Positions 3,501 through 60,304 are shown, numbered from the whole stretch's first letter. The stretch is 63,354 nt of DNA, filler included, from Phoronis australis (GCA_002633005.1; 4 parts of 4 records of this genome joined end to end with filler, not necessarily neighbours in it), one strand, 5' to 3'. Numbers and translations are program-made. Notes: a model not told the origin generated them from the letters alone.

Positions 3501-6500
3501 GCCCAATACTAGACAATCATGTCACTGTGACAGCTCCATACCGATGCCTCATCTGCCAGTTCTTCACCGTTCTGTGCCTCAGAGCCCACTATTACAGGTG
3601 AGCTGAAGTCGAGTGTCGCACGGTCCTTTGTGCTGCCCGCATTGTCCCACTGGCGGTCCTGTTTTCCCTTTTTCTTGGTCGACTCTTCGCGTTTTGGGCT
3701 GAAACATGAAATCTTGACATAATCTGTGCATCTTGGTCTAGAACCATATTAGCATCCACTGGACAACAGTTGAAGTGAAGCTCCACCATTAGTTCAGAGA
3801 AAAAGTCAAAATCATTTCTGGTCCAACATTTAAAAGCACCTGTTTTTTCAGATGATTTCAAAAGAGTTTTAGCATTGAATGATTTTCTGCCATTACGTAT
3901 TACCAAGCTAAAACAAATTTCTGAAAAATCTGTCCACTTTTTTCATAAACTACTGAACACAGCACAAAATGGTTAATGCTTTTTCTAAAGACATGTGCAA
4001 AACAAGCCATAAGTATTCAGTAAAATGACCTGGACTTGCCCGGCATGCCGGCTGGGTCGGATGCCAAATTCATTGAAAATGTTGTCTCCCCTGACGACTC
4101 ACAATGAAGGAGAATTAACAGGTTAGAACAGGTAGCTAAATCATCCTGCAATTTTGCTACTATAATATTTATCATCAGTTTGTTTTGCATAACTAGACGA
4201 CATGACGAGAAGACAGTATTTTGTCCAATTCCTTTTGTCTTGTACTGTAATGACAACGACTAACTCTGCCTACATCGCCCTCATCTTACCTGGCAGTGAT
4301 GGCCTTTGACTTCTTCCCCCCTCCCATCTGCTTCCTGAAGAACGCCTCCCGGTTCTTACGCACTGTCTCCTCATCCAGCTCTCCGTTCACCGAGACTTCG
4401 CTCACTTTCGTCTCCAGCTTTGCCTTATCAATGTTTTCTTTATTAGCTGGAATAATATATGGAGTTACAGTACAAGCCAAAAGTATTCACACAAAAACTA
4501 CCCAAAATTCCCCCATCGTCACGGCTACACGAATGCCAAATTCATCGTCAAAGAAGTCTACCATGACACAAAATGAAGAGGAATAACAGAACAGCGAGTA
4601 AGGTGGCTAAACCATTCTGTCGTCCTTACAGTTAGTGCTTGTCATTCTTGATGTATACAGAATTGGCTGTTATGACAGGAAAACGGTATTTTGTCTGATT
4701 ATTTTTGTTATATACTTAAAATCAAAACAAACCTGAACATAATCACAGCCACCAACAGCTTCATACTTAATGCACAAATTTCTCAACTACTTTTTTATAC
4801 CTTTTCAAGCACACAAATTCCTAAGGAAAAAAGGTCGGAGATGGAAGATGTTTTAGAGAAGGAACATCGTGGAGTAAAAATATAGGTGTCCCCACCGTCA
4901 GACATAGCCTCAACTGGCACAAGTTATGGGCAATAGTCACTTGCAAGTCTTCTACATTTTAGGAACCAGTTTGATGCCTGATATTCAGTGGAGGTATTAC
5001 TAGTTCTCAAAATGAAGGGACTCCTGTAAGTAACGATTACTACTTTACTGATGAAGGTGCACACACTTGCAATCACATTTTCTGTAGCAACTTTATCTCT
5101 ATTTTGATGTCCCCATTATTTGTACACAAAAATTTAATGGATAAAACAAGTGTAGCTTAAATAAGAAGCTGTTTATAGCTTTTTGAAGAAACAAGATCTG
5201 CAGCATCAGCATGGTAGTGACACAAATATCATAGCTAATTTTAAAAACTACATTGTATGAATTATCCAAACCAAACTTAACTATCATCATCTGTTATAAT
5301 TGTTATTTCATAATCACACAGAAATCTTTATTATTTCAAATCTTCCTCAAACAAATAGCAAAATTAACGAAATCTACACTTTGCTAGGACCTGTAAATAA
5401 GCTTGTGTCTCCCATAATCCTCAACCATGGACATTGAATGACAGTAAGGGACAACGTTGAAGAAATGCGTTGCCGTGACAGCAAGGCAGTTAGCTTGGAA
5501 ATTTCTATGGAATTTGAACAAAATGCAACAAGAGTGGCTAGACCTAAGTGAACACGATTAGCTCACACCAGGTGTTGACAATACCTTTATTATTCTTCTC
5601 TGCTTTGTTTGGTTTCTTCTCTTCATTTTTCTTATTTTCAATCATAGAACTCACAGTTTTTTTGGATTTGTGAGAATCTTCAAACGTGCGCATTTTCCTG
5701 CAACAGCAACTCTTGTGTTAACAAACAATGACATTCCATCAGATGTCCACAGCATGCTAACAATTGCAAAAACAAACAAAAATAGTGATCCATAATCAGG
5801 GTGGAGAAAAATCAGGCTAGTCAGATTAATAAATACACCACCAGTCATTTGCGATTCAGATTTGGTTTAGGCATAGTACTTGTACTCCAGCTGGTGAGTT
5901 TAAAGTGTTCAGCCAAGGAGACTCCATCTGGAAATGAGGGTTTCGTAATAAAATTGATCCAAATTGTTGCCCCTTCAGATTAAACCATAAAAGCATAGTT
6001 GGTTATTGCATATGTGTGCCAGCATCAGTCTGAGACCTGCACCTCTCTACTAAAAGACAAATGCCATGTCTGCATCAATTTTAGCCTGGTTCTCAAACTG
6101 TTCAAACATCACACAATGCATGCAATCAAGGTTATTTAACGTCGTGGTTTACCAACTCAGTCACAATCACCTCCTGACTGATGGCCGTCGATGAATAAAA
6201 ATAAGTTACGACCACTGCCTGACATGGACCAATCAGAGCAAGGAACAAGCCGAGACCAGTTTATAAACATATGCGGTCTAAATCAAAAGTGGCAGAAGGA
6301 TGGCTCAGTACGCTTTGCATGAGATACATGTAACAAGTGACATAGTCCTACTTTTTAAAGCGTAATTTATCATTCTGATGCATTGTATCATTATAGGAGT
6401 GTCCTAAAGATCGATGTCCACAGAAATAAAGTAAAACTGTGCAACGACCATTTGGTCTGTCAGCTATATATGCTTTTATGAAGAACAATACATCTCATGG

Positions 6501-9500
6501 ATAGACGACAAAATAAATGGAGGAAAAAGGTTTCACATTTCATATCATACTTAAAGTGACATTATTAGTGAGAAAAGTTATTTTTTGAAATTAGTCATAG
6601 CGCGGATTTGAACTGGGAACCTTTGAGTTTGCAGACAAATATTATGCCAATGAGTTAATCACACTTGATAAATGACAATGTTTCTAACGGGCTAAGTCAC
6701 CAGCCTCGATTTCAGTCAATGTCTGGAAGATACCGGCGAGAATTTACTATTGGTAATAAATTCACAAAACACAAGGGATCTAAATATTTTATACTTTTGG
6801 TCAAAGCTACCAACTTCAAAATGTCTCTCCCATCTAACAATAACCCCAAGAATGTATTTTTTCGGCCATAGAACAATACTTTCCACTTAAACCAGCTGGT
6901 TCACTTTTTTTGAAAAATCAAACTTTGCATTAGATGCAGAGAAGGGAAACAGTACCTTCCAAATACTGGTTATTTTAATAAATACGTTAAAACTCCTCAA
7001 CCTCACCTCTAAGTCAGTTCTCTGTTAGTATATAAATGAAACATAACATTGAATAAGTCAGCTGGAAATAGGCTTCCATTCCAACAGCATTTGAAAAAGA
7101 TCAAAAACTCCATTTAGATGGTAACCTTACAAATAAGCATCCATGTTTGGGACTCTTATGTGCAACCGGGAAATTGATTTGAATCCTTGTTAACACTGGC
7201 ATACAATAGAGTATTGCACAGAAGTTGTCTCCTGCTCTTTTGAGCTTTTTCTTAGCAGTGGCTGGATACAAGAGAATGAATGAGAACTGGATACAAGAGA
7301 ATGAATGAGAACCCTGATACAATGTGAACAACACGTTCATAAGTGAGAAAAACAAACAACTGAGCTTTCATAATATGTTCTTTTTGCACAACTATTATTG
7401 ATTAGTTATCACAGTATCACTGTGTAACTTGTTGCTATTTTCAAACTAAACGTGGAAGAGTTTTCTCTCATTTGTCTTCATGATGTAACAGTACAAGATT
7501 GCAATAACGCATAATGGAAGAATTTTATTAAATAAATAAAAAAGTAATAAAACTGTGCTATAAAACTATTTTAATTATACAGTGCTAACAAAACAACTTA
7601 ATCAATCAATCAGCCACACAAAGTGTCAATCACAGTAATGAGATGCAGATATTAAACTCATTTGAGGATCAAAAGTCACAGGTCACTTCACTAAATGATT
7701 TGATTGGTGCTTCCATGCCAGGAACTCCTTTGGATGACCCAGTTTGCCAAATGGTGATTCGTGCATTAGGGCACAACCGTTTCAATTCCAGAATAACAGC
7801 AGCTGCCTTTGTGTCAACAGCCATGTTGTAATTCATTCCCATGCCAGACTTAGATTTGCAAAGGCTTGCACTGGTTTCTAAAGTGAGATTCATGAGAAGA
7901 ACTGATACGACACGTGATTTGTTTTTGATCGAATCAAGGCACTTACGGAAACTTGTTAAGCCACCAAAGCACCATAATGCAATGTTACTGTTATGTGAAT
8001 TCACATAGTCTACAGCCTTTGTGAAATTTGGATGCAGCTCAGATTCTGCAAGATCGCTGAAGAAAGTCAATCGCTGGTTAACATCAAGTTGAAAATGTTC
8101 CACATGTCTGCGCAGAGTGTCTGTAGGACTGCTGGGTCGACACGCTCCAGGTTCGTAGAACATCCAGTCTCTCCAGTAGATGCAGCTCGATACACCTGCC
8201 GACTGATACAGACAACCACAGTTAAACTCCACACTGTCACCAAGGCCAATAGAATCAAGCATGGCTTGCCAATTTCGAATAACAGCATTACAGGCTTTCA
8301 TCTGCATCGTCTCGTCACAAACTCCACTTTCCCACTCCTCAACGCTAATGAAGTCTAAAACTTTATCTGACGGAATCGTTTTATGTACAAACTCTCCATT
8401 TTCTAACACAACTGAGGTTAAATTTCCATGGCCATCCTTGACAGCATGAGGTATGCGAGGGTCACCGGGAGGATAATCCAGAATAAGTCTGGGTTTATGT
8501 TTGGCCTTTCGAAATGCGCTCGCAATCACAGATGCCGCTGCCTGGCAGTCGTAATCAGTCGGAGAAAAGAACGCCAACAGAGAAATCTCCACATAATCAC
8601 CGCTGACACGCAAACCATCCAATAACAAATCGCGTCCGCTAGATGCGAACATTTCTGCATTCACACAACCAGACACGTACAACTCCTTCGAAACAGCATC
8701 ATGCCAGGTCGTCTTCGTCAGAGCTTGAAAAACGCTCCACTGACTCAGACAGTCCACTACATCTGAGGCTAACTTGTTTTGGCTAAACATCTCATTGAGC
8801 AGGTTTCCAAAGCTTTCAATTTCCCACTTGTCCACGCGTAGATTCCTCGCTCTTGCTGCCTGGCTAATGCAAGCCACTAGCTTCACATGACTACCAGACA
8901 CCCTGTTGACTGTCCACAAGGGATGCTTCTTTGCTGTGAACATCAGCTCTGCAAGGGGCAGAACAATCGCCTCACCGTCATGCACCATCCAGGGGTCCAC
9001 ATACCACTCCACCTGTTGGCGAGCATGAGGACAGAGTTCTGCAGTGATGGCGTCTAGGTTGAAAGCAGGAGAGGTGAAGTTTGGTTGAAAGTCTCTGTTA
9101 ATTCCCCACCAGTGTCGGTTCAAGTCATGCACAAGGTCTCGTAGGGAGTATTCTGGGATGATACTTGATCTAGAAATGAGTTTTTGGTAACTTGTCCATA
9201 TTTAAAGTCACCATGTCCTGACGCAAGAAGATGCGGAAGTAAACAGTCACAGATTTTAGGATCATGACAAAGAAAGCACAGATATCAAGGGTGGCACTTA
9301 CAAATATATTGGACACCTTCACACAAGGATTGTATTACTCGTTTCCATAGTCTTGAAAGAAAGGGACTTGATGACAACAACTTACTAAAACTGAAAGACC
9401 GTCCAAAGTCTATCTTACAACTTTTTAATCTTTCAGTCGGGAAATTTATTTTTTGCACTCTATGAAAGTTGTGTATGTTTATAATAATATCATTTGGGTT

Positions 9501-10187
9501 AATCATGCATCTCACTGTAACAATGTATTGTAAAGCACATAAAATGTTATCCACTATATAAATATCGATTCGAATAAAAAAGTCATAATAATAAAAATAC
9601 ACATAGTCATAACAATCATAAAAATAAGAAGTCATAATAATTATTATAAAAATACAACAGTAAATAATAATAATAATAATAATAATATTAATAATAATAA
9701 TAATACCCACACTTTAAATTTTAAACTGCAAGTAATCAACTTTGCAGCAGTGAGTTTTCATGTTGAAGCAATCAATGAACCCTATTCACTCCATGGATTT
9801 ATCACCCTTAATTACCAACACAAACTTGCCCTATAAAAAAGTTAATAACCAAAACAACCCCAAACACTAATCAAAACAGTGGTTTTAAAAGGCAACCGTG
9901 AATGGACTTTAATAATAATAACAATAATGATGATAACAATTAATGATAATACATAAAACTTCTACCTAACACTAGATGTCACTGAATACTTACTTTGGTG
10001 CTTTCTCCTGCTGATGACTCAAGTCTTCATTGGTCTTGAGTATCCGTTGAAAATCCTCAGTGAAGTTGAAATTACGCGATATCTTGCCCAACTGCAGGTC
10101 GTCTTTGTACTTGTTCTTGAACTCTCGCTGGATGTCGTCCAATAGCTTGTCTATATACGACAACTGCAGTATTTTTTGATACGCCAC
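345..10187 (-). CDS. SRPRA: Signal recognition particle receptor subunit alpha, partial; exons 10187-9994, 5697-5585, 4446-4290, 3698-3542, 2726-2623, 1746-1628, 1219-1133, 517-345
   Basis: All exons are AG/GT bounded and phases join (0-2-1-2-0-2-1-1-0). Translation: VAYQKILQLSYIDKLLDDIQREF (end of SRX/longin domain), K/E-rich linker, FNMFKGLVGSKSLTREDIEPALAKMKDHLVAKNVAADIAEKLCESVATKLEGKVLGTF (N domain) and P-loop ITFCGVNGVGKSTNLAK (SRP GTPase G1). N-terminal exons not found (possibly in gap 10209-10308); the C-terminal part lies beyond position 1. Confidence 0.96.
1133..1219 (-). CDS. SRPRA: SRPRA exon (N domain)
   Basis: tgtag|CCAAG...AGTG|gtaag; AKNVAADIAEKLCESVATKLEGKVLGTFS. Confidence 0.95.
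1628..1746 (-). CDS. SRPRA: SRPRA exon (N domain)
   Basis: acag|CCAG...GTAG|gtaag; FNMFKGLVGSKSLTREDIEPALAKMKDHLV. Confidence 0.95.
1993..2432. mobile_element. MITE/foldback element with ~90-bp TIRs, TA flanks and internal 21-bp tandem array
   Basis: TA|CGGTGGCCCGAAAGTATCAT...ATGATACTTTCGGGCCACCG|TA; interior made of GGTGGAAATTATTTCAACCTA and GGTGGAAATTATTTTCACCCG units. Confidence 0.9.
2623..2726 (-). CDS. SRPRA: SRPRA exon (acidic linker)
   Basis: ctgcag|CTGTCA...AAGAG|gtaat; LSLVGTMGGNLRDMEPESSDEEE. Confidence 0.88.
3542..3698 (-). CDS. SRPRA: SRPRA exon (linker)
   Basis: ttcag|CCCAAAA...GCATCG|gtatg; PKREESTKKKGKQDRQWDNAGSTKDRATLDFS resembles KGKKAPRVWELGG...LDYS. Confidence 0.9.
4020..4250 (+). 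mobile_element. ~250-bp interspersed repeat (TACAGTACAAG...CTTGTACTGTA MITE family), degraded copy
   Basis: Similar to 4466-4710 and to the reverse complement of 58047-58305; ends TTTTGTCTTGTACTGTA. Confidence 0.6.
4290..4446 (-). CDS. SRPRA: SRPRA exon (linker)
   Basis: ttccag|CT...GCCAG|gtaag; NGELDEETVRKNREAFFRKQMGGG. Confidence 0.9.
4466..4710 (+). mobile_element. Same ~250-bp MITE family
   Basis: Starts TACAGTACAAGCCAAAAG; ACAGAATTGGCTGTTATGACAGGAAAACGGTATTTTGTCTGATT matches the reverse complement of 58063-58111. Confidence 0.7.
5585..5697 (-). CDS. SRPRA: SRPRA exon (linker), not called in the ORF track
   Basis: ttgcag|GAAAATG...AAAG|gtatt; KMRTFEDSHKSKKTVSSMIENKK resembles SRPRA MKKFEDSEKAKKPVRSMIE. 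Confidence 0.92.
6595..6665 (-). mobile_element. Degenerate tRNA-derived SINE head
   Basis: Minus strand TAACTCATTGG (A-box-like) ... AGTTCAAATCC (B-box-like); no good acceptor stem. Confidence 0.4.
7669..9169 (-). CDS. Large nested ORF/exon in SRPRA intron; divergent nucleoside hydrolase (IU-NH)-like fold, apparently permuted
   Basis: About 500 stop-free codons in otherwise ORF-poor DNA. NH-like motifs: PTDYDCQAAA, IRNWQAMLDSIG, ALWCFGGLTSF, VLLMN, NYNMAVDTKAAAVIL, and N-terminal VHDGEA. Track start 9132 is GTG; first ATG is at 8988; candidate acceptor tttctag| at 9170; minus-strand AATAAA at 7524-7529. Confidence 0.75.
9560..9705. repeat. AT-rich low complexity / (AAT)n microsatellite
   Basis: (aat)n run at 9663-9704. 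Confidence 0.9.
9994..10187 (-). CDS. SRPRA: SRPRA exon (C-terminal part of SRX domain)
   Basis: cag|GTGGCG...CCAAA|gtaagt; VAYQKILQLSYIDKLLDDIQREFKNKYKDDL...; ends in phase 2. Confidence 0.95.
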
Positions 10188-10208
10188 CTGACACAAGACA
10201 CAGGAATA

Positions 10209-10308
10209 NNNNNNNNNNNNNNNNNNNNNNNNNNNNNNNNNNNNNNNNNNNNTTAATTAATTAANNNNNNNNNNNNNNNNNNNNNNNNNNNNNNNNNNNN
10301 NNNNNNNN
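10209..10308. other. Assembly gap with TTAATTAATTAA linker (same at 36937-37036 and 60455-60554)
   Basis: N-run, ttaattaattaa, N-run, 100 bp each. Confidence 0.97.
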
Positions 10309-16672: not shown

Positions 16673-19026
16673 AGAAATATTATAATACTCAAGACTTACA
16701 TTTGCAAGTCACTGTATACTTTTTCACACTCCTAGAATCATCAGTAAAACTAAAATACCCTGTTCTGTTCTAGATGCGATAAACACCCACGGCTTCTCAC
16801 TAGCTTGAATTTCAAGATATTACAGGAACAAAGTATTAGATGCTTACTATTCAGTGACTCAATCGTCTTCTATATCCTCCGTGAATAACAGCATACAAAT
16901 AGTATCATGACACAGAAACACTGCTCATTCTTACACACACACGTGCATGGAAATACAAATGTATTTATCATTTACACATGTTGTATTTTAGTAATTCTTA
17001 TGTGAGTGAATAAAACGTTTTCTCTCTCTCCCTCTCCCTCTCCCTCTCCCCCTTCCCCCCNATCAATTTAATGCCGAATTCTTTTTCAAATTTCCGTTCA
17101 AATGGTCTGTTATCTCTGCTCATCATTTCCAAAATCGACAGTTTTGCAAGACAATTTTCACTAAAAAGTAAAGTTGGGGAAAGATATTTTTTGCTCAGTC
17201 ATCAAGATTAACTCCTTAGCTGTATGTTCAAAAATTTACATAAAGCTACAAGGTGCAATATGGTGGTAAGTGGGTCACAAAAACATCTGTGGATTATCGC
17301 CCCTGTCTATCACAAAGCTGTCAATTTGAATAAATGTCAAATAATTTTGCATGGTATACATAGGTTATTTAAGCCAAGAAAGCACAACTTTCAGTTTATT
17401 TCTTAAGTTACTTATTTTCGTTGCTGAAAACGTACAATTTTCGAGACGGCCAATATGACAAATCGTGGTCTAATGCTCCAGCGGCGAAATTAGGGGTCAT
17501 TGAGTGCACTAAATGTGGCATTTAGATTTTTGTGAGGCTACCTATCCATATACAATAAATGAAGTATTTTTAAATTTTGACGTATAGACTGATTTTTGAT
17601 ATCTGCTGGTTTTTATATAAACTGCCTCTTAATAACGTAATCTCGACCGTACGTTCATACGTCTACTCAAACAAAACATCATCAAGTTCAAGGTCAAAAG
17701 TAGAGCTCGTCACATGGCAATCTTGAGAACGGATTTGAGGACGAGGTTATCATCCATAGGTGACCCTTGTTTTGACGGAGGGTGGTGTTATTTTTCCTGG
17801 TAGTGCAAAGTCTGTAACTAGAACTGTTACTGGCAGAAAGGTTTGGTCTATGAGCTAGCGTAGGGGCAAGGAGAATTATGAACCGGATCCTCATAGAATT
17901 ATTCGTTAATACGTCGGTAGATGTCGGCCTATGTCGCGGCATACCGCGAAGTACATGGAAACTGACAAACACTTTGTATGGAATGACAATGTACAAAACC
18001 GCGACAAATCACGCATTTGCACAATCCTTCGGGTCCTTTTGTGAAAACCAGGATTTAATTGGGGACATAAAAAGTACACAAAGTGACTGATTTGTGGCCC
18101 ACTTCATACTATTCAGGAGAGTTAAACACAGTAAAAATGCTAGGCACCGTCGCTTTCAAGGCACATCAAAATCAAAACATGTAAAATGACTGGGGTAAAT
18201 CCTTTTTTTCTGTTTGTTATCGTGCAATTTCTAAGATTACTTCAATTTAACTGCACCTTTCAGAAACCGTGCAACATCATTTGTCGCTGGGGAAACGACA
18301 GCATAATTCCTAAAACGGCAGGCTGCCAGTGTTTGTGGACCTGTTCCTAGGATCGAGGGTTGAGCGGGCCCCTCTGCATGTGGAAGTTGGTTGCCGTTTT
18401 GTTGTTATTTAAACAATGTTAGCAGAATGCCGACTTGAGGGGGTATAGGTACACATCTCAACTATAATGAAACGCAAGTCTTGGACCACCCGGAAGGCCT
18501 ATCAATTTTGGAGTGAATTGAATCATTTCAACTGGACTTGGCAAAAAGGCCTAGCATAAGCTAGTGCCCGAACGCAGTTGCCATCTTCCATTTGAAATGG
18601 ACGGGAGGTCATCGATGACCTAAGACATTTTCATTAGTAAATCCAGTTGAAATGATTCAATTCACTCCACACATCTCAACTATCTATCTTTGACTTTATT
18701 TATGATGTCCCCAGTTTACAGTCCAGTTAAATTACTAATACTTTTGAGCTTGCCTCTTCAGTGGTATTACGAGTTAGTTTGTAGCTGACGAAAGCTCGCT
18801 TAAACTCTTCACACCATGGACATTAATGCTTGAATTCGGTTACCAACAATTTTAGTATGGTATCTTAAGTATTTCTTTTTCAATTTGCGCACTTGTAGTC
18901 AAGAAATAAAGGCAAAAACCTCAATTAAGTTGGACGTCATCAGTAGAAGTCCGTTTTCCGCCGTTGTGTTGTTCTACAACAGCCGTGAATAGATGTGGTA
19001 TCGAAAAGAGTTCAATGTTACCTGAG

Positions 19027-19260
19027 ATGAGCATTACGAAAAGGTGCGCGTGTAGAGGATGCAATAATAGCAATGCGACAGACAACATTCAAGTTTTTGT
19101 GTTATCAAAAGACCCTAAGGTAGCCCAGAAATGGCACAAACTAGTGTGTCGGACATGGGTATGGCAGTACACGATAGAGCAAGCGATCAGTTCAGGGGCC
19201 ACGTTGTGCCAGTTTTGAAGAATCGTGCTTCGACCTGTCACAGAAACTAAGAACTGGTGA
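19027..19260 (+). pseudogene. THAP (C2CH) DNA-binding domain remnant, transposon-derived
   Basis: MSITKRCACRGCNN...VFVLSKDPKVAQKW...R.W...TLC, then after a frameshift FEESCFD; matches the THAP pattern C-x4-C...(FP)KD...W...CS.HF...F. Confidence 0.7.
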
Positions 19261-20133
19261 AAGTTTCTCCAGCGTGTAAATGTGTTTGATGGACAAAAGA
19301 AGTGTATTGTGTTGATCCCCTGCTGGAACCGTGCTTGTCAGTCGAACATGTTACCTCGACATCAAATTGTGACTGAAAAAATGCATGGATTGCAGTAAGA
19401 AAGTTCTCATCATGCTATTCCTGGTAAAGATTTTTGGACATGCATGCTTTTCACGTACACTTAACTGATCAGAAGTAGAAAGTGGAATGTAGATCACAGC
19501 CAACTAGTGAAGGGGTCACGTCTGTAGGCGCAACAAACGGACATTGGTCCGAAATAATGGATGAATCAGAACGGCACAAAGTTTTCATAAGTGTGGAGCA
19601 GGCGAGACAGAAACGAGTATGACTTACTAGAAATAAAATCCCTTTAGCATCTCAATTATTGGATATGATTGTTCCTGACAAACGCCTTTTGCATTTGAAG
19701 AAACGAAATCAAAGTGACCGTTATTTGAGATTGGGCTTTGATTGTCGAGACACAAACTTCAACTATAAATTTACATGCATATTACTCGACCCTAAATTGG
19801 TTAGAAAATTAAATCATATCTTAATGAAAGGCTATAATTACCGGTCTGTCGATGTTTTTTTTTTACCTATTGCCCAGTGTCGTTTTCTCCCCCCCCCCCC
19901 CATGCCCGTACCTTTCTTTCTAATACTCGTCAACTTCTCTCTCTAAATTTACAAAATAATCTCACAGACGTCTTCCACTCACTCTAGTACAACACGCCAA
20001 TTCTTCTTTACTGACGAATACACCCCGACATCATGAGGTTGGGTCACGTGGGTACTGTTCGGGAGTACGCATTCTGCGATGACATCCTTACTCAGATGTG
20101 ATGGTAGTTTTTCTTCCATTAGAACCTTTCTTG

Positions 20134-22040
20134 CTGCGTTTTTCCGCGCCCAAAGAACTGTGATATTACGAAACTAGGATTGGAACGTTATAGCGTCGAA
20201 CCACCCCGGATTTGACCTGTTGTAGTGGGGTTTCTGTGGCCCACCCCTGAGGAACTCTACATAACAAGATAAATCAAAAACAAACAAAACGTAAAGTGGC
20301 CAGCCTACTTTGTCTGGTGCAGAAGAAGCAGCCTTCTCCGACTGTTTCGTTAATGGCAGACTGATTTTCTTAAACCTGAGGTTGCACTGGCGAGAACATT
20401 CCCTCCTTACGCTGTGTATGTCCAAACACCTGCGGAACACTTGGACTGAAGGTGGGTATATCCATTTTTTATTGCAACAAATACCTTTTTAGTCAAAATC
20501 CGTGTTCGGGATTCTAATTTATGTTCCCTTTGTAACAATGCTCCAGGGACGCTGTCACACCTTTTGGGGAATGTCGCTTTGTACAAGATATTCGGAAAGC
20601 TAATGCAAAGGTCTCGCATTCAGCTTGCCAACAGTCTCTTACGAACGAGTTATTCTAGGACTTTATGAGACGCATGATTTTCCATTTAAAAATTTTGCCT
20701 CTAATAGCCAAACAGTGCATTTACACGGAGAGATGTCACAAAAATATTCCTAATTTTAAGAGGTATATTACGTATACTTATGAGTACTGTAATGCTGAAA
20801 AATAATTGCATATAAAAACTCTGTATTGTATATGACAGCTTCTCTGCGAAATGGGAAAATTTCATTGTTCATGTAGAAGTTGTTTACTTTATACGATATA
20901 CGAGAATGGTCTTTCCTGAGGTGCACCAGCGTGAATGAATAGATGTACTTATTTGTTCGTTTGTTTGTTTTTGTACTGTTTTATAAATGATAGTAAATAC
21001 CTGAAAAAATTTATGCTTCATTTTGGCTCATCGTTCCTTCATTGGCGGAGTTGCACAACATCCCACAGGTCGTCCAGGGAATATTTGNCTGCGTTTTTCC
21101 GCGCCCAAAGAACTGTGATATTACGAAACTAGGATTGGAACGTTATAGCGTCGAACCACCCCGGTTTTGACCTGTTGTAGTGGGGTTTCTGTGGCCCACC
21201 CCTGAGGAACTCCACATAACAGGATAAATCAAAAACAAACAAAACGTAAAGTGGCCAGCCTACTTTGTCTGGTGCAGAAGAAGCAGCCTTCTCCGACTGT
21301 TTCGTCAATGGCAGACTGATTTTCTTAAACCTGAGGTTGCAGTGGCGAGAACATTCCCTCCTTACGCTGTGTATGTCCAAACACCTGCGGAACACTTGGA
21401 CTGAAGGTGGGTATATCCATTTTTATTGCAACAAATACCTTTTTAGTTAAAATCCGTGTTCGGGATTCTAATTTATGTTCCCTTTGTAACAATGCTCCAG
21501 GGACGCTGTCACACCTTTTTGGGAATGTCGCTTTGTACAAGAAATTCGGAAAGCTAATGCAAAGGTCTCGCATTCAGCTTGCCAACAGTCTCTTACGAAC
21601 GAGTTATTCTAGGACTTTATGAGACGCATGATTTTCCATTTAACATTTTGCCTCTAATAGCCAAACAGTGCATTTACACGGAGAGATGTCACAAAAATAT
21701 TCCTAATTTTAACAGGTATATTACGTATACTTATGAGTACTGTAATGCTGAAAAATAATTGCATATAAAAACTCTGTATTGTATATGACAGCTTCTCTGC
21801 GAAATGGGAAAATTTCATTGTTCCTGTAGAAGTTGTTTACTTTATACGATATACGAGAATGGTCTTTCCTGAGGTGCACCAGCGTGAATGAATAGATGTA
21901 CTTATTTGTTCGTTTGTTTGTTTTTGTACTGTTTTATAAATGATAGTAAATACCTGAAAAAAATTATGCTTCATTTTGGCTCATCGTTCCTTCATTGGCG
22001 GAGTTGCACAACATCCCACAGGTCGTCCAGGGAATATTTG
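20134..22040. repeat. ~953-bp tandem duplication joined by a single N (21088); probable haplotype/contig-overlap artefact
   Basis: 20134-21087 is nearly identical to 21089-22040, with scattered substitutions and small indels. Confidence 0.85.
20462..20880 (+). mobile_element. L1/Tx1-like LINE ORF2 3' remnant (zinc-binding region); second copy ~21415-21835
   Basis: IATNTFLVKIRVRDSNLCSLCNNAPGTLSHLFGECRFVQ (C-x2-C-x7-H-x4-C), then AKQCIY..RC...PNF...EKIIA; frameshifted. Confidence 0.75.
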
Positions 22041-36420: not shown

Positions 36421-37479
36421 TTCTATAAGGTATTCAGCTTTTGAAGTACACTAGTTAATGAAGATTTTTTTTCTTTTATACATGGCTATGAAGAAAATTT
36501 TATTTTTATTTTTGATTCAGGACTTTTGGTTTCTTCGTCATAAATGAGAAACTGGCAAGAGTCTACTGTAATGATGTGCTGGCTTTCGACAAAGGTACCA
36601 ACTACAACAAAAGGCGCCTACCCCAACATATTTTCGCAATGCAAGGGTTATGTCAAAAATCGTACTGCTTTATCTACTTTCCTTGCAGTCAAACAAATTA
36701 TGTTATTTACTCGGGCACCATATTTCATGTGTCTAATGAATATTTGTTTTGTCTACTACTTAGTACTCAGATAAATGTGATTTCTTTGTGGTACTAATAA
36801 ACAAAATTTATGCCCAATACCATTTCTTAGTTTCATACTAAAATCGGATGAAGACTTAAATGTAATGAAACAGAACTGGTAAAGTTGCTACAAACCAACA
36901 TTCCATCCACAATAAAGTAACTTTTAATTTATACCANNNNNNNNNNNNNNNNNNNNNNNNNNNNNNNNNNNNNNNNNNNNTTAATTAATTAANNNNNNNN
37001 NNNNNNNNNNNNNNNNNNNNNNNNNNNNNNNNNNNNGGGGGTTCAATCTGAAAATATATTTTTTGCATTGTGAATTGCTGTTATGAAAATCAACGCGTTT
37101 CGAGTCTTTGTGGCTCATTGGCAAAAGCCCGGAGATCAATTGTGCGCGCGCTTCCGTCGACACTTCTGAAGGAGCCAAGCCTTTTAGAAAGATCCACCGC
37201 TGAACGAGCAGCTCTATAGCTGATTTCTTTAGGTAACTAGCTTCTTTAGTCTAAGGTATGTTTTGGTTTGATTAGGGGAAATACTGTGGTGCCGCAACTC
37301 TGATATTCAGGCGAATTGACGTGCAACGTTTTTACCTCATCTGTCATGCCGTGTCATCCTATTACACCCCACACGTTCGTAACTCGAATTTGACTGGTGT
37401 ATAGTAAAATTGTCTTGCGCAATATCATACAGTGTACTTGTACATGTAATACTTTTGAAAAAACTCGTTTTCCGAAGAA

Positions 37480-38540
37480 TTGCTTGTGGTGGGTGCCGTG
37501 GTCTGGTCGCGAGTCAATCTGTTTGAAGATGCACTCTAACAAGTTATGTCTATACAAGGAATGACCAAGGGGGCACTCACATTGACGAAATGATCGCATT
37601 CGCGAACAGTGTACAGTACCAGAAATTGTGGGGAGGCTGCGTTTTCACAACAAAGTCTTGCGAGACTCGTGCGATGTTCAATGGATCCCCTAAGGGCCCT
37701 AGTGCCGACCTCAACACCTACCGTCTCTCTACCTGCAATAAGCACCACTGCCGTTTTCTATACTGGGAATTTCCGCAGAAAGGCCCACCCGAAGAAACGC
37801 CCATGCCCATGGGCATATATTTGATGTTAGTACTTCGAGTTTCAAGCGTTAAGACATTGGGACGTTTATTTCGAAAATTGCAAGAGATATAAATGGGTCC
37901 TGGGATACATCGTCAAGGTTTGAAGTAGTCCATGATGAACGAATCAAATTTAGTTGCGCAAGCTGTAAGTCTTTTGAATGGACTTGGTAACCTCAGGGGG
38001 CTTAGTGCCAACTGTGTTGTGAAACGAGATGCTGACATTGTGGAGGCGTACAAGTTCATTGACACAGCAGTTGACGAAGTGCAAGCGTTGGGAACAAACG
38101 TGGAAGATGTCTGGGTAGAATGGTTCCAAGAGCAGCAAATCATTAGATCCGATGTACAGATTCCTGGGCAGTTTAGACAACGGAAAGATAGGACCAACAT
38201 TCCTGGAGAAACACCCAGGTAATAAGTTATAATTATACACAGTTTGTAATAATGTCGGTTTTTTATGCTTGTGTACAATGAAAACGAAACAGAAATTATT
38301 TTTGGACATGCCAAATTTGCCCAGTACATCAGAGGGTCTACGAGCGCACAGAAACTGATTCTGGTTTGTATTTCCACTTGAGTCTATATGTTTCATTTCC
38401 AAAATCTTATTTCACGTAGTGCGTAGTTAAATCTGTTCTCAATACTTGTTTCTTCCAGTTAATACTACAGAACGGTATGAAAACCCTTCCTAGAAAACCT
38501 CTCGCAGCAGTTGACCACCAGATAAGTGAACTACACGTAT
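37480..38540 (+). mobile_element. Decayed hAT-superfamily transposase (THAP12/ZMYM1-like type)
   Basis: ORF 37932-38222 has RDADIVEAYKFIDTAVDEVQAL..NVED...WF...RQRKDRTNIPGETP, like the hAT segment before the dimerisation domain; upstream FNGSPK; downstream LFLPVNTTER resembles LPVT...ERSFS; many stops and frameshifts. Confidence 0.65.
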
Positions 38541-43985: not shown

Positions 43986-44336
43986 GTTGACCAAAATTGA
44001 GCTGATTTACATCACGTGTGGTACACGTGTGCTATAATAATCATACAGACTTTCAGCCACGTACCTCAAAATTTTGCAGCCTCTATGAGTATTTTGAACC
44101 TGAATTCGAAAACAAAATGGCCACCACATCCAACATCTTGACAACAACAATAGGCTTCTAGCTATTTGGGAGCTAGAGCTTGTTCGTAAACTTTGAGAAA
44201 AATCTGATGAAAAATGTGACCTGTAGAGTGCAAATAAACACAAAAAACGTCAGAGCAACATACTTGGCGAAAAAATTTTCCCAAGTAATTACCTCCGTTT
44301 GCACATTATTTAAAATGATTTAGCAAGCATCCTTAC

Positions 44337-44498
44337 CTCCAACTTCTACATTGAAGTTGACAAAGTGTAGCAATACATGATGAAGGGGCTGTACCCCAAC
44401 TATGGTCCAGTCACACACCAGATTGGTTGTGTACTTGTCTGGGAAGGACGGACTTTCGATAACACCCCCGATGCCCCTGTCTAGCACTTCTGTGCAGG
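44337..44498 (-). CDS. CUB-gene exon (first half of last visible CUB)
   Basis: ttgcag|CCTG...GGAG|gtaag; CTEVLDRGIGGVIESPSFPDKYTTNLVCDWTI. Confidence 0.92.
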
Positions 44499-47400
44499 CT
44501 GCAATCATTAAAGGTGTACTCTCAAGTTTAAACATGTAAGTACAATTTGTGAAGTTGAATATAAGAAAGCAACTCTCTTCACACCAGCCAGCCGAAAGTG
44601 ACATGGAAAACTTTAACAGTACATTGTTGACTCAGCCTATGACATCATTACTAGACAGAGAACTAAATCTGTGTGTGGCATTCCAGTTGTACCTGGATTT
44701 GACTGTTGCCCAATGGGGCTCATATCAACAAGTGCCCTTTATGTCTATTATATTCATTATGCAAGCAATTCAATCAGTTCTTGAATTATATCTGTGGTCT
44801 GGGAATGATGCCTCGTATTTGGAAAAGAAATTATATTGTGGAAGAGTATTTAAGCGCAATATGCTTCCAACCCTATGACAATTTTGTGAACAAAGGGACA
44901 TATAAGGTTAGGAAAGGTTTCGGAATGTATCTTTAGTTGTTCTTGGTTTCAACGGACAGTGCTAATCAATTGTTATATGAAGCACAGCTTAGGAAGGTCA
45001 AACTTCAAAGTATGTTAAAATGAAAAATCGGTTTGTTTAAGCCAAAAATAACATCTATGAGTTCCATTTTCATTGCAGAAGAGTTAAACTGCCTGATTTC
45101 ACACGAAAATTTTTGTGAGGAGCTTAAAATTAATCAAACCATTAGACATCAGAAGGCAATTATCATATTACCAAGATAGCAACCTAATAACTTTAAATGA
45201 AATTTCTTCATAAGCACAAGTTAGTGAATAATCAGTCTACCATACTTTCAGAATACTAAAGACACATCAACGCTAAGCAGAACAATGTGTGATTTCTAGG
45301 TGTCAACAACCAATAGGAGAAATGACTTAAAGATAATTAAGACCTTCATTAAGACAAGTTTATTACATGGTCAGTTGTTAGAATTAGACAAATGGGACTT
45401 TTTATGAATTTTAAAAACATTGACAACTGTAGGACGGAACAGATTTTTATAATTAAGTACTGTCAAACCACAACAGACAATAATAGAAATTAACTTAGTC
45501 ATTGATATATAATTTTTTTTCTGTAATTAAGTAAAACTTTATTAATGATTAATCTGTTCAGTGTTTTTCATACTCAATGTTTTGTGAAATGCAGACAACG
45601 TTTATTTGGTTAATTGTTGACAGTAACTCATAAGCCTAAAGAGCTGGTTTTGTTTTTTAAATATGATTGTATAGTAAACCTGTTCAAATATTGTATAATA
45701 AACCCGTTCAATCATTTTCCTCAGACACTGAACTCACTTCACAAGGGTTAAGCCAATTAAGATGCAGGTGCCCAGTCTGTTAATTCATAATAAATGACAA
45801 AAATGCAGAAGTTGAAATAACCGAGTGCTCAGGCATATTCCAGTCTGTGTTTATCACTGCATGCATTCAAATGGAAGGCTAAAACATAAACGCATTATCA
45901 GAGACAATTGCATACTCGTAATGGCCGTGTGTAGTAAAGGTACCCCAACTTGAAGACGGATGAGTACATATCCTGAGTGGAACGTATTGGAGTGTCTACA
46001 GTTTTCTCAAACAATTCTATGATTATAGTTGCAATACAGAATGCAATGGAGTGTCTACAGTTTTCTCAAACTATCATTATAGCTGTAATACACAACTTGA
46101 TGCCATATTTCCTATATGAACAAAACCACAAGAAGGAAACATAGGGTGATTATCACAAAACATACCCTGAAACTTTTGCTAATACTTTTTTCCAAAAGAG
46201 GCAGGAATGTCAAATTTTGCAGACCGTCAACTTATGTTTTCAGCTCATGCTGATGTTGAACATTTTTTTAATGCAAGCACTTTTGGCAGTGTACCAGTGG
46301 TTTTCCTTGACGCTCGTTGCATTTAGTGTAGTGAAGCATCAGGAGGCGGGAAATGTTGGTAAAGATGGCCTCGTTGAGCTGAGACAAAGTTTTACAACTA
46401 TGAATTTAGGCACTTTTACAGTATCTAAGCACAACTCGATGCACCTTACCAAATTTAAAAATACACGCTGCTCAATCATCAAATACATCCACTGAGCACG
46501 CAACCAACAAGCTGAGAAAAGAAGGTGATAAGCAGCATTTAGCAACCTCTTTACAGCTCATGTTACAGCTTTTGTTCATATTGTGCAGGCTTATGCACAG
46601 TGTCAACTCCATAGCTCAAGCATAAAAAATATTAGCCAAAGTTTGGAGCTAGTTTTAAGAGAATCGCTCTACACTAGTCCTTGTCCAACATTCTACATCC
46701 AAAACTGGTGACACTTAAACATACATGAGGGCATTTCTCATACCTTTGTCTGTTTTGTGACTCATGAACATAAAGTAAGCCTTGAAGCCATTGTCGGAGT
46801 GCGTGTCATTATTGGAGTGAAACACCAACTTGAGCCCAACTGCACTATGATGGGCTGGAATAGGGCCTGGTGAGGCATCATCATTGCCACAATAACGCTG
46901 GTAAAACAAGTCACTGGTCAAACTGCTATTGGATGGATCCGGCATCAGGTGGTAAACTTCCAGCCAATCACCAGTGCAGCTGAAACATTAGATTTACATA
47001 AATTATGTAAAGCTCATTAAAAAATTGCTATTTGCAAAGGGTCCGAAAACTAGTGGCACTTCAGCACATTAAGGACAGCTTCCAATTTTTCAACAGAAGC
47101 CAAAAATTTTGGGTACTTTTCAATAAAAGTTTTACATCACTATGACTTGTAAAGGTGAGGGTTTAAACTGAAACGCTCACCATTACACAAAACTGAGTGA
47201 AATCATAAAACCTTTAAAACAACCATAAAACTGTTCATTTATCAATTTCTAAATTAAAATAATGATAGAAAGTACATTTTAGATAGCAAACCAGTTAGTC
47301 CCCAAGCAATTTTTACCAAACATTTTTTGGCCTGGCACTTATTCCAAACCAGCGCCTATTCAACACAGCCAGTTTTGCACTCACTGTGTAGACTGTTGTT

Positions 47401-50400
47401 ACCAACTGCATGGAATGTTTGATACCTTTATATAAATAAATATTGTTTTGAACAGTGTTCATTTCACTTGAAAATGATATCCAGATGTTATTAACAACTT
47501 TACAACAACCATTACATCACTCATGATTTCTAACGCTTGCAGTGCATCTATTCATCATTTCCACGCAGTAGACCCTAGAGAATTCTGCGAAACAGTGAAT
47601 TGTGGTAAGCATTGTTTTTTCAATTAGCATTCAATTAGCACCTTGGCGTTTATTTAGAGTAGTGTTTTTTCTGCTTTTGCCCGGAGCTTATTGGAGACCG
47701 AGGCTCAAAAGACTGCTCCACCTAAGAAACACTACAGTATACAGGAATGAAACAAGAGGATTTTTCAGACAACTAAAAATAAGAACAAGAATTTACTTTT
47801 TACAAAATTTCAGTGAGGACATTTTTTGAAAGTTTGCTAAAATCGCAGTACTTAAGCAGTCTCAATATCACACTCAACTGCACAATTTCCGCACCAGATT
47901 CTGATAATGCTTGAACAAAATCGACCTCTTAAAAATAATTACTGGCAGCAAATTAGGCAAGCAGGCCTGCCATTTCATGGAAAGTAGTCATCCAGGGAGT
48001 CATCATTAATTTCTCCAAATGATGACTGCCTTAAGATTACAATACTTCACACATTGTCCATTACCTGTCTCCAGTTTTTCCGAAACCAAAGAAACGGAAA
48101 GTACTAAATGACACCATTGTGCCTTCGCCAGGCAGAGCCCTGAACTCGTAAACACAATCCATATCACTGGGGTACGTCAAAGGATGGCGTGGTGAGTTGA
48201 ACACCCCCGACTTGTGCCGAGAGCTGAGGTAAACGAAGTGGCACTTGTTCTCTTGGATGGGAGTTCCTGGGATAGCGAAGTCTGCAAGTAGGAGGGCAGT
48301 GGGATTAACAACAGTGTTGGTCAAACTAATGTTGTAGGAGGGTAGTAAGAGTAACAACAGTGTTGGTCAAACTAATGTAGAAGGGGAGTGGGGAAATGGT
48401 ATCATAATTATCAATTATGGTATCATTAATTTGCTTCATTCACAAGTCCCAAGCCAACTCATTCTCACATGAACACACACACACACAAACTTCACAAATA
48501 TATAACGTTCCAGTGTTTACAACATTTGTTTCATTCCATAAGTCCAAGTCAACTCATTCTCATACGAGCACACGCACACAAACTTCACAAATATAGAACA
48601 TTCCAGTTTCAATGTTACAGTGAGTAGCTTCCCAAAATTTAGAGCAAACCTGGTGTTTTTAAAAATGATCAACTCAGTTATAACATGACAAGTACATAAC
48701 TGTAAAAAGCTCAGACTGTACTCTATTCTATACACTTACAGGGTGGAAAGAAGCAGACACCATATGAGAGGAACATTCACCATAGACTTACCTTTAATAA
48801 AAGTGTAGGACAAGTTGAACCCTGTGCCACTGATCTGTCCACCAGAGCTGTTGAACTCGACCACTAGGCGGGGATTGGACGAGAACATAGGGCGGGGTAG
48901 AGCCGAACCGCACAACACTCGGTTAGGGCTTGATGTGACAGGGCTCTGACCGTCCAGGTAAAACGACACCTTGGCACTGCTACACCTGGTCATGTGTAAA
49001 ACTCATTAGATCGAGATGTAGTCATACATAACACAATACATATCACTTAGTCGGCAATAATTATTTCTATGAACTAGACTTCCAGTGGACAGTGGTGATA
49101 GTGGGGAGGGGTCATCAGTCTTATTGCTCCCCGAGCTATAATTATATTCTAGTTACGCCACTGCCAATGAAGCATTCCAAATGCAGTTCAGATAAAATAA
49201 GCAAAGTTTAAGACAGTCATTTGACAAATCTTGAGAAAAGAGCAATGCATATGGAGGATTACATATGGACAATTATGGTGGTATGATGATCACATAAAAC
49301 TTAGGAAAATGGCGGAAAATATTAGATTGCATTAAGTGCATGCAGGATTGTAGAACACTGTCCATCAACTATAACCCTATCACTATCTTGCAACAATGCT
49401 GTCCATCAAGTACCCCATCACTATCTTGCAACAATACTGTCCATCAACTACCTCCTCACTATCTTGCAACAAGGCATATTGCATCATGTCCTCACTATAG
49501 AACAAAATGGCTATTACACGGTATGAAAACCGAGAAATTCAAGTGGAATTCACCATCACACGTCGCAGGTTCCGGCTATAGTGGGAAATACAGGTCAAGA
49601 CTCTAATTGAAGAAGAGCAAAATGATGGGAAACATTGAACTTTGTTCAATTTTTGTGGCGTGTGCAATACATGTACCTAGCAAACTTGGGCATGTCCAAC
49701 TTGTTCATAGTCACCTTGACCTTCTCCAGGCGTTGACTGTCTTTCAGGCCATCCAGGAAGTAGAAACAGCTGGTGTTCTGTGGGTACTGACCAGGAAAGT
49801 TGGGCGACGCCAGAGTACCATTTGACTCACCTTTACTACGGATGACCTGGTCGCACTCTGTGAAAATTTATAGATAGGAAATAACTGCCATCCTCGGGAA
49901 GCTCTTTAAGTTTCACAAAAGTAGAAATGATGTCAACTTTTTACCAAAAAAACCAGATACACAAGAAAAAATAGCATCCCTGACCCTATTTGCCTTGTGC
50001 GTGAAACTCTACCAATATTCGGAATTAGGTACATGTGTCTATATGAGACACTTGAGAAAACCAAATATAATGCATGCAAAATTGGACTTATCTGTTTACA
50101 AAATGATGTCAATGTGTATACAAAAACCTCTCGTTTCAGGTTTCAACTACAGACGACAGTGATTTCTAAATCAAGGCTACTCCAAATATCAGTCCAGTCC
50201 ATTGGAAAGTATTCTCGTGCACTTTTGTACACGACACGCAGGCCAATTATCAACCCCTGTCCAAAGAGATACTAAAACCATAATTCATCAACGCGTACCA
50301 GAAAACTGAAACCTCACACATCTACTTCAAAAACCACCAGCTCTAATCCACATCAGTTTATTTCAGCCTGTGTTTTATTGCCTTGAATCCAGCGCTAATA

Positions 50401-59400: not shown

Positions 59401-59723
59401 AACTCATTTTTAAGTAAAAAATGTCAATGTCAGGAAACTTATGCCTTTCCGTTTATATGCCCCCCCTTTTCCGAATAAACGCCCAACCAAATTTTTTCAT
59501 TTTTCGAATCCATGCCCATGGGCTTATTTACGAAAATCCCGGTAACTGTAACTCTGGACTTTGATGAATCAACCTTATGTTTTGGTGCAACAGTGGCTTA
59601 CCGATATGTAGTGATTCATATGTCGAAAAGATCTGCAGGTTTGAGTGTTTCCCACACAAGGTAGCCACAAGAGGCGCTTCATTAGTTTGACCATCGTATA
59701 TCTTCAGTGAGTCGTAAGGACAA
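44337..59723 (-). CDS. Multi-CUB-domain protein, SOL-1 (suppressor of lurcher)-like, partial; exons 59723-59602, 53621-53484, 51940-51896, 49857-49677, 48985-48792, 48281-48065, 46979-46744, 44498-44337
   Basis: All exons are AG/GT bounded with compatible phases. Joined product: CPYDSLKIYDG...LCG...EFRTK...RGFKAFYEFSDQFVNLGRFVNSENAFHIRGTECDQVIRSKGESNGTLASPNFPGQYP...C.Y.LDGLKDSQRLEKV...DFAIPGTP...CHFVYLS...GVFNSPRHPLTYP...GGVIESPSFPDKY. This gives parts of four CUB domains; the HIRGTECDQ.I.SK.ESNGT..SPN.P and D(F/Y).IPGT linkers are what I recall from invertebrate SOL-1 proteins. Confidence 0.85.
46744..46979 (-). CDS. CUB-gene exon
   Basis: tttcag|CTGC...AAAG|gtatg; CTGDWLEVY...RYCG...LKLVFHSN...GFKAYFMF. 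Confidence 0.92.
48065..48281 (-). CDS. CUB-gene exon
   Basis: ttgcag|ACTTC...GACAG|gtaat; CHFVYLSSRHKSGVFNSPRHPLTYPSDMDCVYEF. Confidence 0.92.
48792..48985 (-). CDS. CUB-gene exon
   Basis: ccag|GTGT...AAAG|gtaag; VLCGSALPRPMFSSNPRLVVEFNS...GFNLSYTF. Confidence 0.9.
49360..49471. repeat. ~38-bp tandem repeat x3
   Basis: CTGTCCATCAA.TA....TCACTATCTTGCAACAA. Confidence 0.85.
49677..49857 (-). CDS. CUB-gene exon, not in ORF track
   Basis: cacag|AGTGC...GCTAG|gtac; ECDQVIRSKGESNGTLASPNFPGQYPQNTSCFYFLDG. Confidence 0.9.
50757..51033. repeat. 15-bp minisatellite (CAATGCTCACCAGCT)n
   Basis: About 18 direct copies. Confidence 0.97.
51896..51940 (-). CDS. CUB-gene 45-nt exon
   Basis: ttatag|GCCG...ACTG|gtaag; GRFVNSENAFHIRGT, phase 1-1. 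Confidence 0.85.
53484..53621 (-). CDS. CUB-gene exon, not in ORF track
   Basis: ttacag|AATTC...TTAG|gtgag; EFRTKSGRP...RRGFKAFYEFSDQFVNL. Confidence 0.88.
56068..56727. repeat. 26-bp minisatellite (GCAAGTCATTGTTCATCAGACTACAT)n
   Basis: About 25 direct copies. Confidence 0.97.
58047..58305 (-). mobile_element. Same ~250-bp MITE family
   Basis: Termini AGTACAAGACAAAAGCA ... TGCTTTTGACTTGTACT form an inverted pair. Confidence 0.7.
58398..58541. repeat. 22-bp minisatellite (AGCTAGCGCAAGGGTAGTTTGT)n
   Basis: About 6 copies. Confidence 0.92.
59602..59723 (-). CDS. CUB-gene exon
   Basis: ttgcag|TTGT...ATCG|gtaag; CPYDSLKIYDGQTNEAPLVATLCGKHSNLQIFSTYESLHI. Confidence 0.9.
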
Positions 59724-60304
59724 CTGCAACAAACACAATAGATCTTTTTACGAGACAACTAGTATGGTAAATTTTTATCCCACCTTGGCTGACAGTATTG
59801 CGCTAACTGGGGACATCAATTCATTGCCTAAGGCAAGACATTAGTTAGACATTTGTGGCCAGATATCTTGTATTAGGATATGACAAGTGTGAGTTTAGTA
59901 ATTATTTTTGACGATGTTGGTTTTGGGCCAAATAAACAGTAGAAACCCTGCCACAATTGTTGTTAACATTCTGTTTTGTCATATACACACGTTGGACTCT
60001 CGTGTATATATGTAAATACAAAATGTTACGGTAACAACAATTGTGCTGGATTTTTGCTAATTATTTTTTCCTGCAGTTCAAAAATCCAGCCACTCCATGT
60101 CACAAACAGAAGTGGAAAAATATAGCTAAACCTTGCTAATTATCTTGTAAAAGAATTAGTAGCACTTAATATAGTGGCAGTGCAGTAAAATTGCACCAAT
60201 TTAGTATACAACATTACAGACAATGAAATGAAATTTTATTTTAATACTAGGTAGCAGTATTTATTAGTCCTTAACTTGCATACAAAATCCACCACTGGTA
60301 AGCA

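Follow-up and report, generated by a model that had tools for sequence, protein, structure and literature searches.

The window, by which we mean the whole 63,354-nt stretch of Phoronis australis DNA analyzed here, carries part of the SRPRA gene on its minus strand. Within a 4296-nt SRPRA intron (5698-9993), and on the same strand, lies a stop-free frame of 510 codons (7669-9201), whose translation we denote P0001. Residues are numbered along P0001 throughout; the numbering of the initial annotation runs 23 lower. The frame is far longer than the longest frames in shuffles of the same DNA (mean 102, maximum 183 codons; n = 300), and none of 95 other 1497-nt windows reaches the three-base periodicity of the open reading frame (ORF). 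GC3 is 0.46 in the ORF and 0.53-0.79 in six out of seven stretches of SRPRA exon, and the CpG ratio of the ORF is 0.61, versus 0.64 in the host exons. It is present as a single copy within the window, where the intron matches nothing else. SRPRA exons upstream of 10188, one of which is indicated by reads, were not found in the window. The features of the locus are as follows.

9994-10188, minus strand: SRPRA exon encoding the second half of the SRX/longin domain (Pfam SRP-alpha_N, E 3.3e-17; aligned with human SR-alpha 69-128; ends defined by reads)
9170-9993, minus strand: minor-isoform intron, 824 nt, GT..AG (joint 9169/9994 in reads)
7669-9169, minus strand: alternative last exon, 499 codons plus stop, P0001 aa 12-510 (open frame, reads)
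9004-9165, minus strand: N-terminal conserved blocks, aa 13-66 (R.L.......W.G.N; SP.FNLDA), preceding the first Met (invariant columns)
8836-9003, minus strand: aa 67-122, without counterpart in both homologues, with the first Met (aa 72) inside (alignment)
8647-8679, minus strand: Y.SG..N.E.F block, aa 175-185, likely the last hydrolase strand and the start of the C-terminal helix (profile alignment)
8596-8628, minus strand: putative beta1 and degenerate DxDxxxDD, aa 192-202 (family and profile alignments)
8545-8556, minus strand: invariant D.DC, aa 216-219, corresponding to the beta2 end in IAG-type hydrolases (alignments)
7720-8037, minus strand: putative hydrolase core alpha3-beta4-alpha4-beta5-alpha5-beta6, aa 389-494 (profiles, weak Foldseek rows with the unseeded model)
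7524-7575, minus strand: candidate polyadenylation signals, ATTAAA at 7575-7570 and AATAAA at 7529-7524 (sequence; end of read coverage)
5585-5697, minus strand: next canonical SRPRA exon, major isoform (40 + 41 + 10 junction reads, one X4 contig)

Other parts of the window were annotated in passing. Three gaps (10209-10308, 36937-37036, and 60455-60554) each consist of 44 N, 12 nt, and 44 N; the first carries TTAATTAATTAA between its N runs and is probably an assembly spacer. A multi-CUB gene occupies 44323-59758 on the SRPRA strand (minus), with CUB matches in five exon-sized frames (E 2e-7 to 0.004). Weak THAP (18910-19215, plus strand; E 0.006) and DDE_1 (19982-20173, minus strand; E 0.0002) matches are likely transposon remnants, and 20177-21980 is a tandem duplicate of ~950 nt, with near-identical translations at 20177-21027 and 21132-21980 and a weak zf-RVT match within. 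Long open frames at 50688-51166 and 56023-56784 arise from tandem repeats and bear no coding sign, and two frames at 37527-38219 (plus strand), 121 and 97 codons long, look protein-like and have no Pfam match.

Transcripts joining the ORF to SRPRA

We sampled RNA reads from three same-species runs of one study (X1, X2, and X3), about a fifth of each. The canonical SRPRA junction across the 4296-nt intron was covered by 40, 41, and 10 reads, respectively. From the same donor a second joint, with GT-AG borders, leads from 9994 to 9169; it was seen in zero, one, and three reads, those in X3 having three different start places. The minor junction accounts for 4/95 reads at the shared donor (95% interval 1.2%-10.4%), in two of the three runs. 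The donor, GTAAGT at 9993, is in phase 2 and common to both isoforms, and joining preserves the frame (..EKAPK followed by SSIIPEY..), leaving a fused frame that is open for 564 codons from the SRPRA exon through the ORF stop.

Every read on the ORF is sense to SRPRA. Mean depth on the ORF was 1.0, 0.35, and 0.66 in the three runs versus 0.22, 0, and 0 in flanking bins, and depth was zero at 7170-7569 and 9270-9669 in all three. In X2 and X3 the depth has an edge at 9169; X1 has no minor-junction read and about two reads over 9170-9269. Coverage of the ORF is patchy, with no reads at 8370-8669 and nothing over aa ~245-310. At the 3' end coverage stops in the 7570-7669 bin, and ATTAAA (7575) and AATAAA (7529) lie downstream of the ORF stop, a pattern compatible with a poly(A) site of its own; no poly(A)-tailed read was listed there. 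The X4 contigs contain the canonical SRPRA form only.

The frame has its first Met at aa 72, and 17 of the 89 columns that are invariant in the protein family described below precede it (aa 13-66). The frame is therefore entered from an upstream exon, and only that of SRPRA is seen: The joints listed for the three runs include no other that leads into the ORF. A start at the ATGs at 9214 or 9200 would be in a frame that closes at the acceptor, and the SRPRA junction coincides with the start of family conservation (S13). We conclude that the ORF very probably serves SRPRA as an alternative last exon: In a few percent of transcripts the longin exon is spliced to it with the frame maintained. The initial annotation had described an intact ORF of ~500 codons on the SRPRA strand inside an SRPRA intron. 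The 510-codon frame and 91 canonical junction reads bear out this location, and all peptides that it quoted are present in the frame, but the ORF is not merely nested, because reads splice it to the SRPRA exon. The RNA-seq coverage that it had proposed as a check was found on the sense strand, together with the SRPRA junction.

We noted three further details of the locus. A second AG (9217-9220), which has a good pyrimidine tract, sits 48 nt upstream of the acceptor in use; splicing to it from the SRPRA donor would reach a stop three codons on and may explain the X1 reads over 9170-9269. Position 7672 is A>T in 3/3 X1 reads, changing the final ORF residue from Phe to Leu, as an allele or an assembly difference. 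Short intron islands at 9762-9794, 6698-6730, and 6554-6588 draw reads that are loose-ended on both sides, the pattern expected of repeats expressed elsewhere.

A sparse protein family and its likeness to nucleoside hydrolases

A full HMMER search over 1.84 billion protein representatives returned two homologues: P0004 (E 6.3e-21, 518 aa), a protein of the sponge Sycon ciliatum in EukProt, and P0005 (E 1.1e-16, 520 aa), an ENA record. Each is a single-member cluster. They align with the ORF from aa 13 to aa 493 at about 28%-31% identity, with 89 invariant columns, which places the ORF, by sequence, in an old and sparse protein family under long-term constraint. The feature is real, expressed as RNA, and conserved. 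Neither homologue has a Pfam match or a longin domain; the SRPRA fusion is therefore seen in the Phoronis australis genome only. Both carry Cys-containing inserts of ~25-50 aa between alpha5 and beta6 that are missing from the ORF (P0001 aa 467-478).

Word-indexed protein searches at near, longer, and shorter lengths found no relatives, nor did searches of viral, genome, and metagenome contigs, plasmids, and phages. Matches in 2/401 genomes of one bacterial phylum (E 0.004-0.01; one with stops) were taken as chance. Pfam, NCBIfam, PADLOC, and PDB sequence searches gave nothing above any threshold; a Pfam TIR_2 match (E 0.14), two PHROG rows, and the PDB rows Vps3 and neuroplastin were likewise rejected as chance.

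The likeness to nucleoside hydrolases is clearest in the C-terminal part of the ORF. Four bacterial-hydrolase profiles placed their positions 103-200 on aa 389-490 (z 3.6-5.5, 0/200 shuffles as high in each), with profiles and segment limits picked after the matches were seen, and the IAG-type profile reaches aa 494 with two short gaps. M437, N459, and D463 are invariant across 51 rows, and identity with hydrolases in this core is <22%. The GGLTS, LLMN, NYNMAVD, and ITI motifs, which the initial annotation had read in hydrolase order, align to this core, and the beta4-beta6 core motifs of PF01156 occur in order within aa 389-494. In a blind comparison of the three-member family profile with 177,635 PDB sequences, the T. 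vivax IAG hydrolase made up four of five rows, with both beta1 and core aligned, at nonsignificant E values of 1.2-1.3. The best 25 rows of the family HMM on 945 frames (290 hydrolases, many entered twice) were all hydrolases.

P0001 gave hmmsearch E values of only 0.004-0.02 per comparison and 0.3-7 bits with our own hydrolase profiles; a single value of 1.6e-4 came from a profile containing a frameshifted row. The hhalign probability was 0.3%-0.7% with the single sequence and 2%-16% with the family. Against PF01156 itself (cut-off 34.2 bits), the HMMER comparison suggested by the initial annotation gave no match over the cut-off in P0001 or its homologues, and PF01156 is unlisted for P0001, P0004, and P0005. 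We liken the ORF to PF01156 in its apparent working and do not assign it to that family, because its score, fingerprint, and third-aspartate position fail.

The AlphaFold model of the ORF from its single sequence had a pLDDT of 39. Hydrolases were the highest-probability Foldseek rows for this unseeded model (0.63 for 4i73 and 2c40; E 0.18-0.5, not significant); none of its Foldseek, BFVD, or VIA matches was significant, and VIA-align returned periplasmic-binding and helical folds, with no hydrolase among the 50 matches listed. A second model, built with the two homologues and 48 seeded hydrolase core fragments, reached a pLDDT of 47 and was confident in the seeded core only (under 50-60 in the unseeded part). 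Of the single eight-stranded alpha/beta domain typical of PF01156, the modeling delineates with confidence no more than this seeded core. Its hydrolase matches (best E 0.008, Z 6.3, rmsd 4.3, 111 aligned) were set aside as circular, since the core was seeded. The structural check proposed earlier thus yielded hydrolases as the top-probability rows, and reached neither significance nor packing of the C-terminal segment. Taken together, the Foldseek, profile, and family searches make a nucleoside-hydrolase fold highly likely for the ORF product, with no single search reaching a database-wide threshold.

Probable order of the fold and candidate metal site

All three family proteins end 10-17 residues past beta6, and the C-terminal third of the hydrolase is therefore absent from its normal place. 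This third comprises two helices, the third Ca2+ aspartate, the last strands, and the final helix. Directly before beta1, P0005 reads PSQ..PGVYLSGQVNREAF, matching the end of the IAG profile (psqG..Grkvqvvddvdrdaf), with VNREAF aligned to vdrdaf. Permuting the IAG profile raised the P0005 score from 21.4 bits in native order to 28.3 bits, and permuting a mixed profile from 24.3 to 27.2 bits (0/300 shuffles as high in both). Residues Y175, S177, G178, N181, E183, F185, and R190 of the block before beta1 are invariant.

At the family level, 24, 10, 23, and 6 of 300 shuffles scored as high with the permuted profiles (P 0.02-0.08). The same junction of C-part and beta1 was recovered in three of four profiles, with gains over native order of only 1.2, 0.1, 0, and 1.1 bits. 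P0004 gave little signal (8/300 and 136/300 shuffles as high) and the ORF alone none (27-151/300, also 53/300 and 157/300). Real hydrolases cut at 205 scored better on the family HMM in 24/44 cases and worse in 14/44, and the comparison of re-ordered with native queries brought no hmmsearch gain for P0001. In one tiling, chains of even-tile blocks reached 27.1, against a maximum of 23.6 under the null, and the other tiling gave nothing; hand-drawn motif blocks were post hoc and left uncounted.

Given the hydrolase fold, circular permutation is the best reading of these alignments, and a probable one. The proposed order is the C-terminal third (aa 13-186), beta1-beta3 (190-245), an insert (~250-385), and beta4-beta6 (389-494); the long insert would lie in the beta3-beta4 crossover, and the permutation cut just after beta6. 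The initial annotation had also proposed a permutation; the idea stands on motifs revealed by the homologues, and the N-terminal motifs on which it had been built probably do not hold. Its HD motif (VHDGEAIV..FT, P0001 aa 73-89; aa 50-66 in its numbering) falls inside aa 67-122, for which neither homologue has residues; scored in isolation against the HD block, it reaches 12.6 bits, with 7/500 shuffles as high. This motif, the helix that it had placed at 97-116, and SPTDYDC as the DxDxxxDD fingerprint (0.3 bits) were probably mis-assigned. In the family alignment the fingerprint falls at aa 195-202, so SPTDYDC is read as the beta2 end, and the invariant D.DC (aa 216-219) aligns with the (A)DC of IAG enzymes. 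Readings of WHD (166-168) as the HD motif, of LILDYPP as beta1, and of DYDCQAAA as the C-terminal helix did not survive comparison with the homologues.

The fingerprint is complete in P0005 (LLDCDGGLDD), at the place of LLD195GLRVSGD202 in P0001. The N-part comprising beta1 and the fingerprint was matched by 0/300 and 1/300 shuffles in P0005 and by 34, 4, 13, and 8 of 300 at the family level. P0001 keeps D195 and D202, with L197 and G201 in place of the two middle aspartates; in hydrolases the second of the four, at the L197 place, is a Ca2+ ligand. Two of the four aspartates are thus present in P0001, two plus a Glu in P0004, and all four in P0005, which may keep the metal site. A degenerate aspartate cluster in the ORF had been guessed correctly.

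In hydrolases the third Ca2+ aspartate follows ~230 residues downstream, after His, Trp, or Cys, according to a 2022 review of the fold (PMC8910321). The family proteins, ending shortly after beta6, have none at that place; D50, in SP.FNLDA, is a candidate upstream instead, preceded by Leu. SP.FNLDA resembles the W/H-D-A-L-T-A motif by eye, without significance, and "DAITA" ranks first among local matches to the hydrolase C-part with one of four profiles, also not significant. The same text describes two stacking tryptophans, Trp83 and Trp260, in group II (IAG) hydrolases (PMC8910321); the ORF has Leu at the inferred Trp260 place, the Trp83 place is uncertain, and the invariant W346 sits in the insert. 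Given L197 and G201 in the fingerprint and the Leu before D50, a standard Ca2+-dependent hydrolase is unlikely, and the ORF copy is probably not a canonical hydrolase.

Proposed product, alternatives, and meaning

Our overall reading, to which we give a probability of about 0.5, is that an alternative last exon of SRPRA encodes a likely permuted, hydrolase-fold domain that would be brought to the ER and is predicted to bind ribosides. The donor lies just past the longin domain, and the product would be ~635 aa long, with ~135 aa of SR-alpha (longin) followed by 499 aa that replace the SR-alpha linker and NG GTPase. The longin domain of SR-alpha binds SR-beta on the ER. It would bring the hydrolase-like domain to the cytosolic face of the ER, and the minor isoform would occupy SR-beta without ribosome targeting. 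By analogy with XopQ, the ORF domain is more likely a binder of ribosides or ADP-ribose, or an enzyme of changed chemistry, than a standard hydrolase.

A tandem gene is the usual intermediate for permutation through duplication and trimming. An IAG-like hydrolase may have been duplicated and trimmed at both ends, and an intronless copy later inserted in the SRPRA intron and captured by the phase-2 donor. For the viral or horizontal origin raised by the initial annotation, or for a bacterial source, the searched viral, genome, and metagenome contigs, phages, plasmids, and 401 genomes of one bacterial phylum offered no support, and the sole named relative is from a sponge.

The ORF family shares with IAG-type hydrolases (PF01156; T. 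vivax 1hoz/3epw, T. brucei 4i73, B. anthracis 2c40) the position of the beta1 fingerprint, D.DC after beta2, the core G(P/G)L(T/S), M, and N..D, and ST/SS..V at the beta6 end. In contrast to them, it lacks the C-terminal third after beta6, which is likely placed in front, and the ORF has a ~140-aa crossover insert, a longin fusion, two lost fingerprint aspartates, and Leu before the candidate third Asp, where theirs is preceded by His, Trp, or Cys. XopQ and Sde_0182 are described in that review as hydrolase-fold proteins without nucleosidase activity, XopQ binding ADP-ribose (PMC8910321). Likened by description only, they too are hydrolase scaffolds with additions; they have lost leaving-group residues and, unlike the ORF with its degenerate cluster, retain the Ca2+ site (PMC8910321). 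Plant NSH3/CPN1 has two whole hydrolase domains and is located in the cell wall (PMC10483608), a tandem arrangement that differs, by description only, from the single permuted domain proposed here. A full-text literature search, with most subscription journals outside its scope, found no permuted nucleoside hydrolase, and the available text of the 2022 review (PMC8910321) speaks of no permutation. As for the host gene, the ORF isoform shares the longin exons with SR-alpha, and it resembles alternative last exons of the intronic-polyadenylation type in that an intronic acceptor and a candidate poly(A) signal would make the isoform; unlike those, it would swap the NG GTPase for a 499-aa folded domain rather than a short tail. 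No comparable SRPRA isoform was among the literature matches listed.

Other explanations account for parts of these data. The protein could be hydrolase-derived but truncated, for instance as the remnant of a two-domain hydrolase, keeping beta1-beta6, having lost the C-terminal third, and bearing N-terminal blocks that are an unrelated cap. The C-part alone was never significant (18/300 and 115/300 shuffles as high in P0005, 55-192/300 for the family), and plants do have two-domain hydrolases (PMC10483608). We nevertheless consider truncation unlikely, given the VNREAF/vdrdaf and PSQ matches directly before beta1 (+6.9 bits in P0005), the junction common to three of four profiles, and the invariant Asp of FNLDA, which is available as a third ligand; under truncation the site would lack that ligand even though P0005 retains the fingerprint. 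A fold unrelated to nucleoside hydrolases, the motif likeness of a conserved alpha/beta protein being due to chance, would fit the lack of any search beyond a database-wide threshold and the 50 VIA-align rows listed without a hydrolase. It is very unlikely in view of the independent convergence of unseeded Foldseek, core profiles, family HMM, and PDB search on IAG-type hydrolases and the complete DxDxxxDD of P0005 (0/300 shuffles).

The remaining alternatives concern the locus. We judge it quite improbable that the ORF forms a separate nested gene with an unseen 5' exon of its own, its SRPRA junction reflecting functionless leaky splicing and intronic polyadenylation: The few junction reads (four, none in X1), the roughly two X1 reads over 9170-9269, the stand-alone homologues, and the canonical-only X4 contigs would suit such a gene, but no other joint into the ORF is listed, depth is zero at 9270-9669 in three runs, no in-frame ATG precedes aa 72, and the junction is in frame exactly where family conservation starts (S13). 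Cargo of a mobile element or virus, exonised in the intron and spread patchily by horizontal movement, is compatible with the SRPRA-exon reading and would account for 1.5 kb without introns, only two relatives, and the low GC3 (0.46). There is but a slim chance of it, with no match in viral contigs, phages, plasmids, PHROGs, or BFVD (the last searched with a low-confidence model), a single copy in the window, and a host-like CpG ratio (0.61 versus 0.64).

A more specific and doubtful extension is that the permuted family spans sponges to Phoronis and that one member, captured by SRPRA and kept by selection as its alternative last exon, provides an SR-beta-docked sensor of ribosides or ADP-ribose on the ER, competing with SR-alpha. 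If true, nucleotide metabolites would be tied to protein targeting via a second SRPRA product. Leaky splicing, if that is what the junction represents, would leave the family and its fold standing. The family offers a natural series that runs from the complete Ca2+ fingerprint of P0005 to the degenerate one of the ORF and, if permuted, would extend a well-studied enzyme class by a new topology. The SRPRA splice would be a testable exon-capture fusion, in which a core secretion gene supplies an unrelated domain with its own ER-docking domain.
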